A DNA stretch of 32,000 nucleotides from Puniceicoccales bacterium (lineage in GTDB: Bacteria; Verrucomicrobiota; Verrucomicrobiia; Opitutales; LL51): contig JAITBP010000007.1 of NCBI GenBank assembly GCA_031283585.1, positions 1-32,000 on the forward strand, read 5' to 3'. Positions 10,206-14,245 of the stretch are shown one piece after another. The notes under the pieces were generated by a model that did not search any database, was not told the origin of the DNA, and saw nothing but the letters and a program-made list of their open reading frames with translations. Position 1 is the stretch's first letter. Each line of letters opens with the position of its first letter. A program made the translations under genes and the position numbers.

Positions 10206-11708
10206 CTATATTCTTCTGCGTATAATTGATCGCCTCTTTTTGGCCTTACGCTTCCTGATGTCAATGCGACGGTTTTTTTTAGTTTTTTTTTTACGGATCA
10301 GCCCATCGCTTTTGTGCTTTTTGGGTTTAGATTTACCAAATCCTTTAGCTTTTTTTCCAAAAACCAACATATTACCATTGCGCCTTCTGCCTCTGACTCG
10401 ACCAGTTGGGTTTCTGTCTGTCGTCTTTCTAAAGTCAGTTGGGTTAGCACTTTTGTGTTTTCTGATAACAATATGGTGGCCAGTTTTTAGATTACCACTA
10501 TGAGGTCTCTCCACGGGGACTTTGACAATCGCAGTATCTAAAGTGGTTTTGTAATTACCATCGGAATCATTGCGTAAATTACTTCGTGGATTAAAAGCTG
10601 AGTTTATATTTCGATTTTTGTTAGGATCAATATTAATTTTGGTAAGTGATTCCAATTTATTTGTGGTGCGAATTGTCTTATTATCTGCACAAAGCAATCC
10701 GGTTTTGCCATTTATTGTAACTTCTTTTAATGCTGCCATCCAGTAAGCACCCTCAATGTAAATGAATATTGCATCTTCACTGCTGATGGCAGATTGTAAC
10801 TTTTCATATATAGGTATTTGTTCTTTAAAAAACTTGACCCAGGCATCTAAAAAATCAGGATTAAAGTCAGAATCCTTACGATTGCCATTTTTTATAAATG
10901 TCTGATAGGCATAGTTAAGCAATGGGTCCATCAGGCTATATCCATTGCCATCGATTCCAGGTACAGTTTTTTTTGCTTCATTTGTTAACCACTTATCCAG
11001 AATTTCTCTGTCGAAAATTTTCTCACAGTGAAAAAAATAATCTGTAAAAATCCTGTTAATATCACAATACCTGGATTTACTGCCACCGTACAGCTTTTGA
11101 ATTAATTCAATCTTCGCATTTGCATCAGAACTACTACATTTAACCCATTTTAAATTAGTAATCGGTCGCTGCCATTGGTCATATTTATAAAGAAAATTAA
11201 CTATACGAACTTTACCATCAGGACAACATACATAACCTGTGACAGTATTATTAAAATTATTATAACCACCACTTATTGTACTTAAACAAATTATTGGCCT
11301 CTTAATATGTCTAGCAATGTCTATACAATCGGTGTTACCCAGCCAATAACTGTTAGGCGAGGTTATATTATCAGCTAGATCTGGATGAACAATATTTCTT
11401 ATGCTAAGCATATCCTCCCAGGTATAGCGACCTTTTTTCGGGTCTTTAGCAATGGCTATGGACCAATATCCACAATCACCATAATGTAACACGTCGTATA
11501 GAGTCAGTCCAAGGCCCGATATGATAGACTCATGGTTGGACATTCTTTTACCACGTTCATTTAAAACCCTTTTATATTTGTTTCCATTTTTATCAGTGTA
11601 TATGTCTGTCACATCTGGATCACCGTAGCCGTTACAGCCTAGGACGATCAATGACAGCAGCCATATATTTAGTTTCTTAATAACAAAGAATTTTTTACCT
11701 GCTCCCAT
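10206..11708 (-). CDS. Secreted (possibly lipoprotein) OTU-like paralog 2; His-box His replaced by Tyr; ~90-aa Lys/Arg-rich C-terminal tail
   Basis: Signal peptide ending VLGC (lipobox-like). Cys box YGDCGYWSIAIA (Cys codon 11472-11474), then WEDMLSIRNIV. The His-box position reads GAYWMAALKEV (TAC at 10743-10745). The tail reads …RVRGRRRNG…KKKTKKNRRIDIRKRKAKKRRSIIRRRI. Confidence 0.75.
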   Translation of the reverse strand: MGAGKKFFVIKKLNIWLLSLIVLGCNGYGDPDVTDIYTDKNGNKYKRVLNERGKRMSNHESIISGLGLTLYDVLHYGDCGYWSIAIAKDPKKGRYTWEDMLSIRNIVHPDLADNITSPNSYWLGNTDCIDIARHIKRPIICLSTISGGYNNFNNTVTGYVCCPDGKVRIVNFLYKYDQWQRPITNLKWVKCSSSDANAKIELIQKLYGGSKSRYCDINRIFTDYFFHCEKIFDREILDKWLTNEAKKTVPGIDGNGYSLMDPLLNYAYQTFIKNGNRKDSDFNPDFLDAWVKFFKEQIPIYEKLQSAISSEDAIFIYIEGAYWMAALKEVTINGKTGLLCADNKTIRTTNKLESLTKINIDPNKNRNINSAFNPRSNLRNDSDGNYKTTLDTAIVKVPVERPHSGNLKTGHHIVIRKHKSANPTDFRKTTDRNPTGRVRGRRRNGNMLVFGKKAKGFGKSKPKKHKSDGLIRKKKTKKNRRIDIRKRKAKKRRSIIRRRI

Positions 11709-11795
11709 CCTGTTTTGATTATATAAAAATTTTAGTAAAATAACAGAAATATATGCATATATTTACTTTTTATATATCCTATAATAATAATGAAA

Positions 11796-12659
11796 TTACC
11801 GTATTATTCGTTTAGGAAAACGACTTCTGTGCCGGATAAGAATTTTTCTTTTTTTATTGGTTCTTCTTTTTTTTCTACTAATTCTTCTCTTTTTTCGAGT
11901 TCTTCTCTTGGCAATAAATTTTCTGACCCGACGACTTTTCCTAAATCTCGCATTCACTTTGCCATGGCTCCTACTGCGTTGCATAATTAGGTAACTACTA
12001 CTGCCGGACTTACCGCTATAGCTGTATCTCGATGCAACTGGCCTAGGGAAGTAACCAGGTGGAAGTATTACCTCGAATTTATTCGATACGCGGCCTAAAT
12101 TATTTGGCAACCCAACTATCCAGTGAGGTCTACCGCTGACAGTACCATTACTCGGTATGTGATGGATAAGTATTACAGGTCTACCGGTAAAATTTAGGGT
12201 TCTCACAGAAGTATATACGGCACCGATGTCATTTTTATCGTAGACTATTATGCTATCCTGATTATTACTATCCTTTAACCCTGAAATAGCTAGGGTTACC
12301 CCAAGTTGCTTTGCAATCTTTCCACAGCAAAAACTGGAAGAATTCAGCCCTGAATTGGAGCTATAACAATCCGTATCATCACTAAGATTTGGATAAACAA
12401 TCTTTCTGATTGCCAGGGCATCGGTACGGCTACACCTACCAATAGATGGGTTTAATCCTAGGGCGATGGCATAATATCCACAGCCGCCCCACCCACCACC
12501 GGTTACGTCGTATAGAGTAAAATTGAGATGTCTAGCCAAGGGAGAATCGCCATAGGCACCAGTCCATTTCCCAATTTCTATAAAATAGCCCCGGCAGTCG
12601 GTATACACCAACGACACAATCGATACAAATACAAATGTAACAAGCCTTCTTGTTAGCAA
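11796..12659 (-). CDS. Secreted OTU-like paralog 3 (compact core) with ~60-aa Lys/Arg-rich C-terminal tail
   Basis: TTG start preceded by a strong GAGGTGA Shine-Dalgarno. Hydrophobic N-terminus. Cys box GGWGGCGYYAIALG (Cys codon 12480-12482), then ALAIRKIVYP. His box GRPHWIVGL. The tail reads RFRKSRRVRKFIAKRRTRKKRRISRKKRRTNKKRKILIRHRSRFPKRIIR. Confidence 0.7.
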   Translation of the reverse strand: MLTRRLVTFVFVSIVSLVYTDCRGYFIEIGKWTGAYGDSPLARHLNFTLYDVTGGGWGGCGYYAIALGLNPSIGRCSRTDALAIRKIVYPNLSDDTDCYSSNSGLNSSSFCCGKIAKQLGVTLAISGLKDSNNQDSIIVYDKNDIGAVYTSVRTLNFTGRPVILIHHIPSNGTVSGRPHWIVGLPNNLGRVSNKFEVILPPGYFPRPVASRYSYSGKSGSSSYLIMQRSRSHGKVNARFRKSRRVRKFIAKRRTRKKRRISRKKRRTNKKRKILIRHRSRFPKRIIR

Positions 12660-13027
12660 ACTTCACCTCATGGATTGGAGCATGCTTTTGGCCTATTATT
12701 CCGATGTCAATAGAAAAATTATATTAAAAACTTCACTGTTTTCTGTTTTTACCCAAAAGCGCCTTGGAACATTACTTTCGAGATGTTATAATCGATTACT
12801 TTATCTCCGGAAAAAAATCATTCTTCCTTTTCTTTTCTTGGGACATTTTCTTCTTTTGCGCCTCTTTTTTGCCTTTTTAACATTCTTATTTGGCTCAACC
12901 AAGCGGAGAATTGACCATCATAGGCTTCCATATCTATAATACTACCATGACAAATATCGGCGAATATCATGGTAAAAACCTACAATAAGAATGACTCCAT
13001 TATAATACCCGTTTCAACATGATGAGG

Positions 13028-14245
13028 TCATTTCTTTTTTCTTTTTCGATTTCTAGATCTTTTTCGTTTATTTCTAGACTTTTTTTTGCTATTTTTAGCT
13101 CTGGTTAATCTATCTTTTACTCTATTATGGGTGGCATTTACGGTCGATTGACTAGATGACACCGACGATGAGGCATTCGATATACTAAGTACAGACGATG
13201 GTGGCTGGTGTTGCTGATTCAGAAATAATGAATTATCTGACGATTGCTTATTTGGTGGCAGATCATCCATTCTAGACTCCAATTTTTGCGATTGAGAATT
13301 ATAATCTGAAATTTTAGAGTTGAGGGTTGGGCGTATAGATGATATTTGTGGTTGCACAGGTTTTTTTTTATTATTCAGTGCCACTACCCAATGGTCACCG
13401 ACGTTATGAATAAATATAGCTCCGGGTCTGGCAACAATATCCTGGAGTTTGCTATTCTCCGTAATCTGGTGATTGAAAAAATCTTTCCAGGCCTGTTCAA
13501 GTTTTGCGTGAAGTGGTTTCCCTTTCTTGGCATTAACATTAGGTACTTCGTTATCATCGGGAAGTGGTGGCGCTACATCTATATTAACCCATTTGTTGAA
13601 AAATTTTTCAGTAAAATCTTCTATAACTTTGTCCCCTGCATTTACATTGTTACCATATAATGTTTCAATTAATTCGTATTTATTACCACGCAACCAGATA
13701 TCATCAACAAAAGATTTCAAACAATTTACACCAACAAGCGGTTTTCCGGTTGCATCGGTTCCATTAACAAAAATACCTCCATGGACATTATCTGGTGTAT
13801 ATATACTTATAGTATTTGGATCAACTTTATATATACCCATAGTATTTGGACCAACTTTCATGATGGGGTTATTTTTATCAAGACCTGAACCAACTATCAC
13901 CTTATCTATGCTTGGCGCAATGTCCATGCAATTAAATATATCCAGCCACAGAGAGCCATCATTAAAATCGTCTGGGTTATCAGGATGGACAATCTTCCTT
14001 ATTTTAAGCATATCTTCCCTGGTATAGGTCCCTTTTTCCGGATCATTGCCAATGGCTATGGCCCAGTAGCCGCAGTTGCCATCGCCCAACGTATTATATA
14101 GTGTCAAACCAAGTTTGGCCACAAATGGAGAATTCTGATCACCATATTCTCTAGGCTCATAATCACCGTAGCCATCACTAACCCATGTCATGGCTAAAAA
14201 AAACGCAACCAGCGTAACCCTGTTAATTAATAAATGTTTCCACAT
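13028..14245 (-). CDS. Secreted OTU-like paralog 4 with Ser/Gln-rich linker and Lys/Arg-rich C-terminal tail
   Basis: Signal peptide then DGYGDY. The closest match to the canonical OTU Cys box is LGDGNCGYWAIAIG (Cys codon 14072-14074), then REDMLKIRKIVHP. His box VGDHWVVALNN. Low-complexity stretch SSVLSISNASSSVSSSQS. The tail reads AKNSKKKSRNKRKRSRNRKRKKK. Confidence 0.75.
   Translation of the reverse strand: MWKHLLINRVTLVAFFLAMTWVSDGYGDYEPREYGDQNSPFVAKLGLTLYNTLGDGNCGYWAIAIGNDPEKGTYTREDMLKIRKIVHPDNPDDFNDGSLWLDIFNCMDIAPSIDKVIVGSGLDKNNPIMKVGPNTMGIYKVDPNTISIYTPDNVHGGIFVNGTDATGKPLVGVNCLKSFVDDIWLRGNKYELIETLYGNNVNAGDKVIEDFTEKFFNKWVNIDVAPPLPDDNEVPNVNAKKGKPLHAKLEQAWKDFFNHQITENSKLQDIVARPGAIFIHNVGDHWVVALNNKKKPVQPQISSIRPTLNSKISDYNSQSQKLESRMDDLPPNKQSSDNSLFLNQQHQPPSSVLSISNASSSVSSSQSTVNATHNRVKDRLTRAKNSKKKSRNKRKRSRNRKRKKK

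Follow-up and report, generated by a model that had tools for sequence, protein, structure and literature searches.

Four unannotated genes between gltX and metG

The window analyzed here, meaning the whole 32-kb stretch of DNA, carries four tandem paralogous genes (P1 to P4) that are all encoded on the minus strand and are placed between gltX and metG. None of these genes has an annotation, and each encodes a protein that opens with a segment resembling a signal peptide and continues into an OTU-like core. The genes and their main features are as follows.

9062..10144, minus strand: P1 (P0007, LBB20_01910), 360 aa, with Cys76 (9917-9919) and His314 (9203-9205) and without a basic tail
10206..11708, minus strand: P2 (P0008, LBB20_01915), 500 aa, with Cys79 (11472-11474) and, in place of the His, a Tyr (residue 322, 10743-10745)
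10209..10376, minus strand: polybasic tail of P2 (residues 445-500), 27 K/R and 2 D/E
11796..12659, minus strand: P3 (P0009 in the 273-aa NCBI call, P0015 in the 287-aa Logan call), 287 aa from a TTG start, with Cys60 (12480-12482) and His179 (12123-12125)
11799..11990, minus strand: polybasic tail of P3 (residues 224-287), 33 K/R and 0 D/E
13028..14245, minus strand: P4 (P0001), 405 aa, with a GDGNC motif, Cys58 (14072-14074) and His285 (13391-13393); the NCBI call, of 387 aa, begins downstream of the signal peptide
13031..13141, minus strand: polybasic tail of P4 (residues 369-405), 20 K/R and 1 D/E
14165..14245, minus strand: signal-peptide-like segment of P4 (residues ~1-27), MWKHLLINRVTLVAFFLAMTWVSDGYG

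Segments equivalent to the one at the start of P4 open P1, P2 and P3. The rest of the architecture varies between the paralogs. In P2, the core is followed by a linker of ~110 aa and then by the polybasic tail, and P3 represents a minimal core form from which a helical insertion is missing. In P4, this insertion spans residues ~180-272, and a linker rich in S, N and Q lies between the core and the tail. Only 61 bp separate P1 from P2 and 87 bp separate P2 from P3, and a search of the 368-bp gap before P4 revealed no remnant of the family. The four genes are best explained as a lineage-specific tandem expansion of a family of proteins with a predicted OTU-type (papain-like Cys/His) fold. An antibacterial toxin-immunity system is disfavored because there is no obvious immunity-gene partner at the locus.

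A predicted OTU fold with an incomplete set of active-site residues

None of 11 members matched the Pfam OTU model (PF02338) at E <= 1 to 10. Likewise, the cores found no match among Pfam, NCBIfam and PDB sequences, and profiles built from the OTU-like family found no OTU match among PDB sequences. Structure prediction was more informative. An AlphaFold2 model of the P3 minimal core (pLDDT 76, pTM 0.78) has as its best PDB match the Wolbachia enzyme wMelOTU (6w9r/6w9o), with a probability of 1.0, a TM score of 0.51-0.57 and an E-value of 1.7e-3. The same model also matches the Taggert vOTU of a nairovirus, OTUD3 and rice OTUB, all of which are OTUs, and together with wMelOTU these matches have probabilities of 0.94-1.0 and TM scores of 0.43-0.57. 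Further matches are to viral OTU-bearing polyproteins. Nearly all of the best 50 PDB matches to the full-length P4 model are OTUs as well, with weak E-values. These predicted models provide moderate support for an OTU fold composed of a central beta-sheet and supporting helices.

OTU domains are recognized by a Cys followed in order by a His and then a large aromatic residue (PMC7396840). A CGY[WY] motif and an H-W pair are conserved in P1, P3, P4 and most of their relatives. The catalytic pair is altered in P2 (His to Tyr), in P0010 and P0011 (both Cys and His) and in some members of a basal clade (Cys to Gly). OTUs further have an acidic residue or an Asn at His+2 or, in the A20 type, ahead of the Cys. 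The proteins of the window have V, I, G or M at His+2, those of the basal clade have V, T, A or M, and thus none of these residues is acidic. P4 and the basal clade do have an Asp at Cys-3 (DGNC), which P3 lacks. A preliminary description of this DNA had spoken of a deubiquitinase-like effector with a protease-like core. The predicted OTU-like fold agrees with that proposal, but deubiquitinase activity is only putative, given the absence of a Pfam OTU match and of the acidic His+2 residue, along with the Tyr that replaces His in P2.

Bacterial OTU deubiquitinases have been characterized from Wolbachia, Legionella and Escherichia albertii, among others (PMC7396840). The known effectors (wMelOTU; Legionella LotA, LotB and LotC; ChlaOTU; EschOTU; Schubert et al. 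2020, PMC7396840) resemble the OTU-like family in predicted fold, in the catalytic order Cys ... His-aromatic (C...H-W), in the DGNC-type Cys loop of P4 and the basal clade, and in coming from host-associated organisms. However, at the sequence level the OTU-like family matches neither Pfam OTU nor a single PDB chain, it lacks the acidic residue at His+2, and several of its members lack the Cys and/or the His.

Polybasic tails that retain charge rather than sequence

The fraction of K+R among the last 30 residues is 0.63 in P2, 0.57 in P3 and 0.63 in P4, compared to 0.17 in P1. Of the 27 plausible genes in the window, no other has a fraction above 0.23 in the last 30 residues or above 0.37 in any 30-residue stretch. 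Given an overall K+R fraction of 0.123, the binomial probability of finding at least 17 K/R among 30 residues is 8e-9. The preliminary description had noted K/R-dominated tails on three of the four paralogs and none on P1, which is borne out by these fractions. The C-termini of P2, P3 and P4 contain the three peptides it quoted, letter for letter, and the coordinates it gave for the tail-coding regions are about right when compared with the mapped polybasic stretches. The AlphaFold2 model of P4 has pLDDT values below 50 over residues 294-405 and of 70-92 in the core, and the tails of P2, P3 and P4 are predicted to be disordered. We know of no polybasic disordered C-terminal tail in the characterized bacterial OTUs.

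Basic tails are present in 9 of 10 subfamily members from three ortholog groups, which come from the metagenome-assembled genome (MAG) of the window, the MAGs LBH49 and LBI37, and one JGI metagenome fragment. Across the subfamily, the tails span 35-100 residues, and the part that follows the core carries a net charge of +16 to +40. Orthologs share 19-40% identity in their tails, with many indels, versus 43-65% in their cores, and their K:R ratios range from K-rich to R-rich. For example, the tail of P0010 is strongly Arg-rich (23 R in the last 60 residues), and Lys dominates in P0002 and P0004. Because the tails have diverged more rapidly than the cores, have accumulated many indels and vary in K:R ratio, it is their charge that persists and not their sequence. 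That the paralogs differ in tail sequence had been proposed before, and indeed the similarity of their tail DNAs does not exceed that of codon-shuffled controls. Related genomes retain basic tails as their sequence drifts, a point that the earlier proposal had suggested checking.

The orthologs P0010 and P0011 (c-type), in which Cys is replaced by Ser and His by Arg or Ser, still carry strongly basic tails. Since these proteins keep the tail without the Cys and His, the role of the tail is probably independent of catalysis. Among ORFs of at least 100 aa at the syntenic locus L001, K+R fractions of at least 40% in the last 30 residues occur only in this OTU-like family.

A family confined to termite-gut bacteria

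The OTU-like family is restricted to MAGs of Puniceicoccales from termite guts. Its basal clade comprises ~22 proteins in at least 8 other MAGs of this order, which begin with a long transmembrane helix and have an acidic C-terminus in place of a basic tail. The membrane anchor of this clade hints that the bacterial envelope was the ancestral site of action.

A related MAG, Gsp477_bin142, derives from the hindgut of the lower termite Glyptotermes, and published work treats small-genome termite-gut Opitutales as putative flagellate endosymbionts. The termite Opitutales families LL51 and UBA9783 are exclusive to lower termites, have genomes of <1.5 Mbp, carry a nucleotide transporter, and fall in the lineage of the endonuclear bacterium Ca. 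Nucleococcus (Mies et al. 2024). The bacterium represented by the MAG of the window, a member of the termite-gut Puniceicoccales/Opitutales, is likewise a putative endosymbiont, as judged from its NCBI order-level label and the sister MAG.

Probable export from the bacterial cytoplasm

All 11 subfamily N-termini begin with an n-region containing K/R, followed by a 12-residue segment with a Kyte-Doolittle mean of 2.1-3.0. Thus, the N-terminal Sec signal reported in the preliminary description can be considered Sec-like by hydropathy in every member. A Cys follows the signal-like segment, though not in a canonical lipobox. Given a Sec-type signal peptide at each start, the proteins are probably exported from the bacterial cytoplasm, and from this signal by itself they would be expected in the periplasm or at the surface.

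Alternative roles for the tails

The main rival to a host-directed role is that the tails are electrostatic anchors by which the enzyme, once exported, stays bound to LPS and phospholipid head groups of the anionic envelope of the bacterium itself, or to outer-membrane vesicles. The tails would then have replaced the ancestral N-terminal transmembrane anchor, and the enzyme would act at or near the bacterial surface. This explanation, which we consider unlikely but worth serious attention, draws on the location predicted by the Sec signal and on the difference between the basal clade, with its transmembrane helix, and the tailed subfamily, with its short signal-like N-terminus, which resembles an anchor swap. 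Polybasic patches that anchor proteins to membranes usually carry less charge than the +20 to +40 distributed over the 35-100 residues of these tails. Also, envelope anchors typically include a hydrophobic or amphipathic segment, which is missing from the tails. Sorting signals of the PEP-CTERM, LPXTG and GlyGly-CTERM types consist of a signature motif, a hydrophobic transmembrane helix and a short basic cluster. The tails contain no such helix, with just 7-16 scattered I/L/V/F/M/W among their last 60 residues, and a comparison with NCBIfam models gave no match at E <= 0.01. Furthermore, the characterized OTU-fold enzymes act on eukaryotic conjugates of ubiquitin or ubiquitin-like proteins (PMC7396840).

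A less probable alternative is that the tails are cell-penetrating (protein-transduction) segments, like that of HIV Tat, which would carry the proteins across a vacuolar, plasma or nuclear membrane, with nuclear accumulation as a possible side effect. The composition and length of the tails fit known polycationic transduction peptides, and a protein exported by Sec without an injection system needs some way over host membranes. The Arg-rich tail of P0010 would be well suited to this task, but the tails of P0002 and P0004 are dominated by Lys, which is less effective than Arg for protein transduction. This explanation also presupposes that there is a host membrane to cross, and no symbiosome was observed around the related endosymbiont Ca. 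Pinguicoccus (Ca. Pinguicoccus paper).

It is very improbable that the tails are functionless products of A-rich mutational drift, stop-codon loss, frameshifts or assembly errors in poly-A runs, and this explanation is already largely refuted by the conservation of basic tails in orthologs from other samples and MAGs. In its favor, the tail-coding DNA is 44-45% A with slippage- and error-prone homopolymers of A6-A10 (A7-A10 in P2), and all sequences derive from short-read metagenome assemblies. However, the regions after the core are open for 100-170 codons (P <= 3e-4 by mononucleotide shuffling), both alternative frames of the tail-coding DNA hold stops, the Arg codons are of both the CGN and the AGR type, and other genes in the window have no such tail. 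In addition, the 287-aa P3 is on record from independent sources, and the same 500-aa P2 is found in NCBI, JGI and Logan, consistent with the original claim that the tails are in frame and not annotation artefacts. The possibility of frameshift error had been raised at that time, and the frames prove to be open through the A-rich DNA.

Least credible of all is a positively charged C-terminal signal for type IV secretion, since a net-positive C-terminus, although typical of VirB/D4 substrates in Agrobacterium, Bartonella and Anaplasma, is here several-fold longer and more highly charged than known signals of this type and is accompanied in every member by an N-terminal Sec-type signal, which upholds the doubts expressed in the preliminary description. 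No type IV secretion genes are present in the window or at loci L001, L002 and L005, which leaves the available DNA without such a system, and the sole secretion-related neighbor belongs to the CesT family and resembles genes for type III chaperones. In Legionella, the Lot effectors are substrates of type IV secretion, and the OTU-like family differs from them by its N-terminal Sec-type signal.

A possible role in the host nucleus

We tentatively favor the view that these OTU-like proteins are exported and directed at the host, and that their tails, by binding polyanions, serve as nuclear, nucleolar or chromatin targeting modules, where export beyond the periplasm, a host target, nuclear or nucleic-acid binding, and any enzymatic activity are what we infer. 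Several observations weigh against this view. P1 lacks a tail, Sec takes proteins no farther than the periplasm, no path through the outer membrane was identified, and moving a tail of +20 to +40 through Sec against the membrane potential would be unusual.

In line with the preliminary description, each tail includes 3-5 monopartite (K-K/R-x-K/R) and 2-7 bipartite patterns for classical importin-alpha nuclear localization signals (NLSs). These matches carry no weight because any sequence with 60% K/R would produce them, and P0003 and P0011 have basic tails without a strict monopartite pattern. Nucleomodulins are effectors with eukaryote-type NLSs, such as TAL effectors, Agrobacterium VirD2 and VirE2, Anaplasma AnkA, and the alpha-peptide of Neisseria IgA protease. 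The fit of the K/R clusters to NLS patterns and the probably intracellular nature of the bacterium are reminiscent of this group. However, nucleomodulin NLSs are short, discrete motifs, whereas the 35-100 residue tail of the OTU-like family is polybasic throughout, which brings it closer to regions for nucleolar retention or nucleic-acid binding.

Polybasic disordered regions are also found in the C-terminal domain of histone H1, protamines, chlamydial Hc1 and Hc2, and the basic region of HIV Tat. The tails have in common with these regions an extreme K/R content, disorder (here predicted) and the retention of composition over sequence, and polyanion binding, by which these regions act, is what we propose for the tails as well. 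H1, protamines and Hc1/Hc2 are architectural proteins of the nucleoid or chromatin that are made in the compartment where they act, and Tat is a viral regulator that is also able to enter cells. In contrast, the polybasic region of the OTU-like family is appended to an enzyme-like domain that bears a signal peptide.

If the organism of the window resembles Nucleococcus, the closest functional analogue may be a 63-kDa periplasmic protein of Holospora obtusa, which is released by this endonuclear symbiont of a protist and binds host nuclear DNA (PMC9866348). Holospora is an unrelated bacterium (Alphaproteobacteria), no sequence relation between the proteins was found, and what is described for the Holospora protein is a DNA-binding domain rather than a polybasic tail on an OTU-like core (PMC9866348).

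A host-directed protein of this type would be taken out of the bacterial cytoplasm by its signal peptide. Its tail, disordered and placed after a disordered linker, would be a sequence-independent polyanion-binding module that, on reaching host cell material, concentrates the protein on nucleic acid or chromatin. There, the targets of the OTU-like core would be ubiquitin-like conjugates or other nuclear proteins of the host, and in catalytically dead members it would be the binding surface of the core that acts. For a bacterium residing in the host cytoplasm, the tail could function as an NLS or nucleolar retention signal. For an intranuclear bacterium like Ca. Nucleococcus, it could instead be a chromatin or RNA tether. 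Because a bacterium in the nucleus would have no need for an import signal, tethering to chromatin, the nucleolus or RNA would fit such a lifestyle better than a classical NLS.

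Polybasic Tails in a Tandem Paralog Cluster

The four paralogs lie in tandem on the minus strand, flanked by a GT4 glycosyltransferase gene with gltX at one end and by metG at the other.

9062-10144, minus strand, P1, 360 aa
10206-11708, minus strand, P2, 500 aa, continuous polybasic stretch at residues 445-500
11796-12659, minus strand, P3, 287 aa with a TTG start, continuous polybasic stretch at residues 224-287
13028-14245, minus strand, P4, 405 aa, continuous polybasic stretch at residues 369-405

P2, P3, and P4 are 31-34% identical to P1, and the paralogs have in common an invariant C-G-Y near the N-terminus and a (H)W-x-x-x-L motif toward the end of the core. 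The preliminary description had placed Lys/Arg-rich tails on P2, P3, and P4; its tail peptides occur verbatim in these proteins, and their locations were confirmed. In P2, P3, and P4, lysine and arginine account for 63%, 57%, and 63%, respectively, of the final 30 residues, but for only 17% in P1, which had correctly been described as lacking such a tail. Other proteins among the 27 plausible genes of the window stay at or below 23% over their final 30 residues and at or below 37% over any stretch of 30 residues. With the overall K+R fraction of 12.3% for these 27 genes, the binomial probability of at least 17 such residues in 30 is 8e-9. The tail observation is solid. Cluster DNA was also searched for degraded extra paralogs and for a lost tail downstream of P1, and none was found, while a promoter and terminator scan of the cluster gave nothing above shuffled expectation.

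The DNA encoding the tails is 44-45% A and carries A6-A10 homopolymers; runs of A7-A10 occur within the following segments.

10209-10480, minus strand, tail-coding DNA with homopolymer runs
11799-11990, minus strand, tail-coding DNA with homopolymer runs
13031-13141, minus strand, tail-coding DNA with homopolymer runs

Both remaining frames of this DNA reach stops quickly, and the 103-173 codons that follow the core remain open in at most 0.03% of mononucleotide shuffling trials. Moreover, the 500-aa P2 is identical in NCBI, JGI, and Logan records, and the 287-aa P3 is also recorded in Logan. The strongest point in favor of real coding is that relatives in other assemblies keep basic tails. 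Because the frames are open, the records independent, and the tails present in other assemblies, an assembly or frameshift artifact is very unlikely to be their source, and the earlier claim that the tails are not annotation artifacts holds. The homopolymers are possible sites of replication or transcriptional slippage, which would truncate or alter the tails.

A Small Family That Retains Charge Rather Than Sequence

The family is very small: only 12 members emerged when 1.84 billion representative proteins were searched exhaustively with a profile. In word-indexed searches across 5.8 billion clusters these 12 came up again, together with about 20 proteins of a more distant clade. All named matches come from "Puniceicoccales bacterium" MAGs, and a contig profile search with a narrower alignment matched a single GTDB representative. 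The related locus L001 (MAG LBH49) is syntenic and has three paralogs, bounded by metG and by the glycosyltransferase gene with gltX, and MAG LBI37 (loci L002 and L004, isolate Gsp477_bin142) carries at least two paralogs before its contig ends. Three groups of orthologs are discernible.

a-type: P4, P0002, P0003
b-type, short form: P3, P0004, P0005, P0006
c-type: P0011, P0010

Among the 10 members with an informative C-terminus, nine have a net charge of +16 to +40 after the core, the exception being P1 at +2. Tails of orthologs are only 19-40% identical and have many indels, whereas their cores are 43-65% identical, and the K:R ratio varies from K-rich (P0002, P0004) to R-rich (P0010). Thus, orthologs do keep basic tails, and the charge and disorder of the tails persist while the sequence does not, as had been surmised from the window paralogs. 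Recent conversion or duplication as a source of shared tail DNA among those paralogs was rejected, given that their similarity does not rise above codon-shuffled controls.

The distant (basal) clade comprises about 22 proteins of ~260 aa from at least eight further Puniceicoccales MAGs. These proteins (P0012-P0035) begin with a long transmembrane helix, followed by an acidic/Pro-rich linker and an OTU-like core with the same motifs as the subfamily (DGNCGFWA ... HW[TV]VAI). Their C-termini are acidic and mostly end in ETYFLVNP, a motif strikingly conserved across this clade in MAGs other than that of the window. A basic tail was found in none of the approximately 22 proteins, and therefore the polybasic tail is an innovation of the tandemly expanded subfamily. 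Along with its appearance, the transmembrane anchor gave way to a short N-terminus that resembles a signal peptide.

Proteins of the P1-P4 family probably carry a signal peptide. In the NCBI annotation, the start sites of P4 (387 aa) and P3 (273 aa) are placed beyond the corresponding segment.

14192-14245, minus strand, segment omitted from the NCBI call for P4, covered by the 405-aa ORF
12618-12659, minus strand, segment omitted from the NCBI call for P3, covered by the 287-aa ORF with a TTG start

The longer ORFs can be aligned with the signal peptides of every paralog and ortholog, and the deposited annotations of P4 and P3 probably truncate the N-termini.

An OTU-Like Core with Recurrent Loss of Catalytic Residues

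Searches of Pfam, NCBIfam, and PDB sequences with single family cores and with family profiles gave no match beyond chance-level ones, among them Tudor, DUF1592, a phage baseplate protein, and nitrogenase Fe protein. Structural models were more informative. An AlphaFold2 model of P4, built from a nine-sequence alignment, has pLDDT values of 70-92 at residues 27-293 and below 50 at residues 294-405, so that disorder is predicted for the linker and tail. The best 50 matches of this model in the Foldseek PDB library are almost all OTU domains, with weak E-values. A minimal P3 core model (pLDDT 76, pTM 0.78) matches Wolbachia wMelOTU (6w9r/6w9o) with probability 1.0, TM 0.51-0.57, and E 1.7e-3. 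It also matches Taggert virus vOTU, OTUD3, and a rice OTUB-like domain, and a search of a viral library added polyproteins and OTU-bearing proteins, one of them a nairovirus L fragment.

OTU proteases with the usual threading have a Cys ... His order with an acidic residue expected at His+2 (Schubert et al., PMC7396840). The family core likewise has Cys ... His-Trp in this order, but it lacks the acidic residue two positions after His. For this reason, the predicted core is better called OTU-fold or OTU-like than an established OTU deubiquitinase. The initial view of a deubiquitinase-like core is thus borne out by the modeled fold, but not by sequence profiles or by the residue at His+2.

Putative catalytic residues have been lost repeatedly. 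P2 has Tyr in place of His at residue 322 (10743-10745), and the c-type proteins P0010 and P0011 have Cys replaced by Ser and His by Arg or Ser. Several basal-clade members carry Gly or Ser in place of Cys, with residue losses listed for P0026-P0028, P0030, P0031, and P0033. This pattern supports Cys and His as a functional pair and suggests that some members are pseudo-enzymes that keep a binding role. Because the c-type proteins retain very basic tails despite replacement of both catalytic residues, the role of the tail appears to be independent of catalysis.

A Probable Endosymbiotic Lineage

Isolate Gsp477_bin142 was recovered from hindgut metagenomic data of a lower termite, Glyptotermes sp. 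6, and is one of the MAGs of Mies et al. 2024 (accessions JAIRJQ-JAITXW). According to that study, two Opitutales families, LL51 and UBA9783, are restricted to lower termites; their genomes are smaller than 1.5 Mbp, have a lowered GC content, and carry a gene for a nucleotide transporter. The study also counts the endonuclear Ca. Nucleococcus among the putatively endosymbiotic Opitutales. Elsewhere, Ca. Pinguicoccus (Puniceicoccaceae), which lives in a ciliate, has been grouped with termite intranuclear symbionts in a "Nucleococcus cluster." We infer a link between the window MAG (LBB20) and LL51/UBA9783 on three grounds: a common NCBI label, synteny, and the sister MAG. The lifestyle of the lineage is probably endosymbiotic and possibly endonuclear. 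No published Ca. Nucleococcus genome was found in the literature.

Possible Roles of the Tails

Nuclear targeting by the tails, as the preliminary description proposed, is a reasonable hypothesis, and it becomes more interesting because the lineage is probably endosymbiotic and possibly endonuclear. The proteins would be exported by Sec and would then arrive at host material, where the disordered polybasic tail would bind polyanions. In a eukaryotic cell, the tail would cause accumulation on nucleic acid (nucleus, nucleolus, or chromatin), and the OTU-like core would act at this nucleic-acid-rich site. If the bacterium is cytoplasmic, the tail might be a nuclear or nucleolar localization signal, whereas for an intranuclear bacterium it might be a tether rather than an import signal. 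A 63-kDa periplasmic protein of Holospora obtusa is released and binds macronuclear DNA (PMC9866348), and it offers a precedent for all steps after export. We infer all five steps; directly supported are the sequence properties, the conservation pattern, the predicted disorder, and the predicted fold. This reading is the most economical one, and it is tentative, with a little less than an even chance of being correct as a whole. The system would be of a kind that joins a bacterial OTU-like effector to a nuclear or nucleic-acid targeting region, here as a new variant.

The tails might instead retain the proteins on the bacterial envelope or on vesicles. Sec by itself reaches only the periplasm, and the derived clade seems to have exchanged the transmembrane anchor of the basal clade for a basic tail, yet on balance we regard this role as unlikely. 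A cell-penetrating segment, with which the tail composition is compatible and which could coexist with nuclear targeting, is rather improbable. Neutral or artifactual origin is contradicted by ortholog conservation and frame maintenance and deserves very little credence. A type IV secretion signal is hardly plausible, since the signal peptide and the tail size both speak against it, and no type IV genes were seen in the window or the related loci.

Other candidate roles were considered as well. A PEP-CTERM-like or other sorting signal was excluded, as there is no hydrophobic helix and no model match. An antibacterial toxin-immunity pair is unlikely given that no obvious partner gene lies between the paralogs. 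The gaps are 61 bp (P1-P2), 87 bp (P2-P3), and 368 bp (before P4), the last with no recognizable partner gene.

Neighboring Genes

Several other features of the window were recorded.

1379-1468, minus strand, tRNA-Ser(GGA)
2907-3809, minus strand, ORF without a family match
3960-4036, minus strand, tRNA-Pro(CGG)
4050-4135, minus strand, tRNA-Leu(TAA)
4148-4663, plus strand, probably spurious ORF overlapping a tadA-like deaminase gene (4202-4717, minus strand)
7836-8972, minus strand, GT4 glycosyltransferase adjoining the cluster, GTG start, 378 aa
14486-14737, plus strand, small hydrophobic conserved protein, 83 aa, weak Pfam match to the Imp-YgjV inner-membrane protein
16984-17475, minus strand, CesT-family (type III secretion chaperone-like) gene, Pfam E 7e-19
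26353-29100, plus strand, 915-aa protein with only a PD-(D/E)XK nuclease match
31328-31840, minus strand, ORF without a family match, probably the C-terminal portion of a 716-aa gene extending past the window end, as in related locus L005

The CesT-family gene sits among housekeeping genes (hexapeptide transferase, GNAT, metG), and its position is shared by L001 and L002; genes for a type III apparatus were not found in the window and the related-locus DNA examined. The gene for the 83-aa protein has counterparts in L001 (9058-9321) and L002 (8955-9206) and always lies between metG and the paralog cluster (three of three genomes). An AAA_28-domain gene (190 aa) is located directly upstream of the first paralog in L002 (9225-9797) and in a further related locus, L003 (214-786), but it is absent from the window and L001, and thus the cluster boundary is variable. 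The GT4 counterpart in L001 (14254-15279) is called at only 238 aa within a 341-aa ORF, which may reflect N-terminal erosion in this relative.

Implications

The molecular basis of host interaction is almost a blank for endosymbionts of termite-gut flagellates, and for intranuclear bacteria generally. The most far-reaching possibility is speculative and unlikely to hold in full: the bacterium would inhabit the nuclei of termite-gut flagellates as a member or close relative of the intranuclear Ca. Nucleococcus lineage, and the tailed family would supply the first effectors described for such a symbiosis. Exported by Sec, these OTU-fold enzymes and pseudo-enzymes would be fastened to host chromatin or the nucleolus by polybasic regions resembling protamines or histone tails and would edit or mask ubiquitin-like marks there, in a family diversifying by tandem duplication. 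If the tails are only envelope anchors, the finding would be a modest curiosity, a new family of periplasmic proteins.

The family is lineage-restricted, expands in tandem, bears signal peptides, and combines a predicted deubiquitinase-type fold with a conspicuous, putatively polyanion-binding tail. Therefore, it is a concrete and testable candidate for a host-manipulating effector in the termite-gut flagellate symbiosis. It would extend bacterial OTU-like proteins to Verrucomicrobiota, in a form missed by all sequence profiles, with the fold joined to a putative charge-conserved, disordered targeting module, and it offers a lead for research on termite-protist symbiosis.
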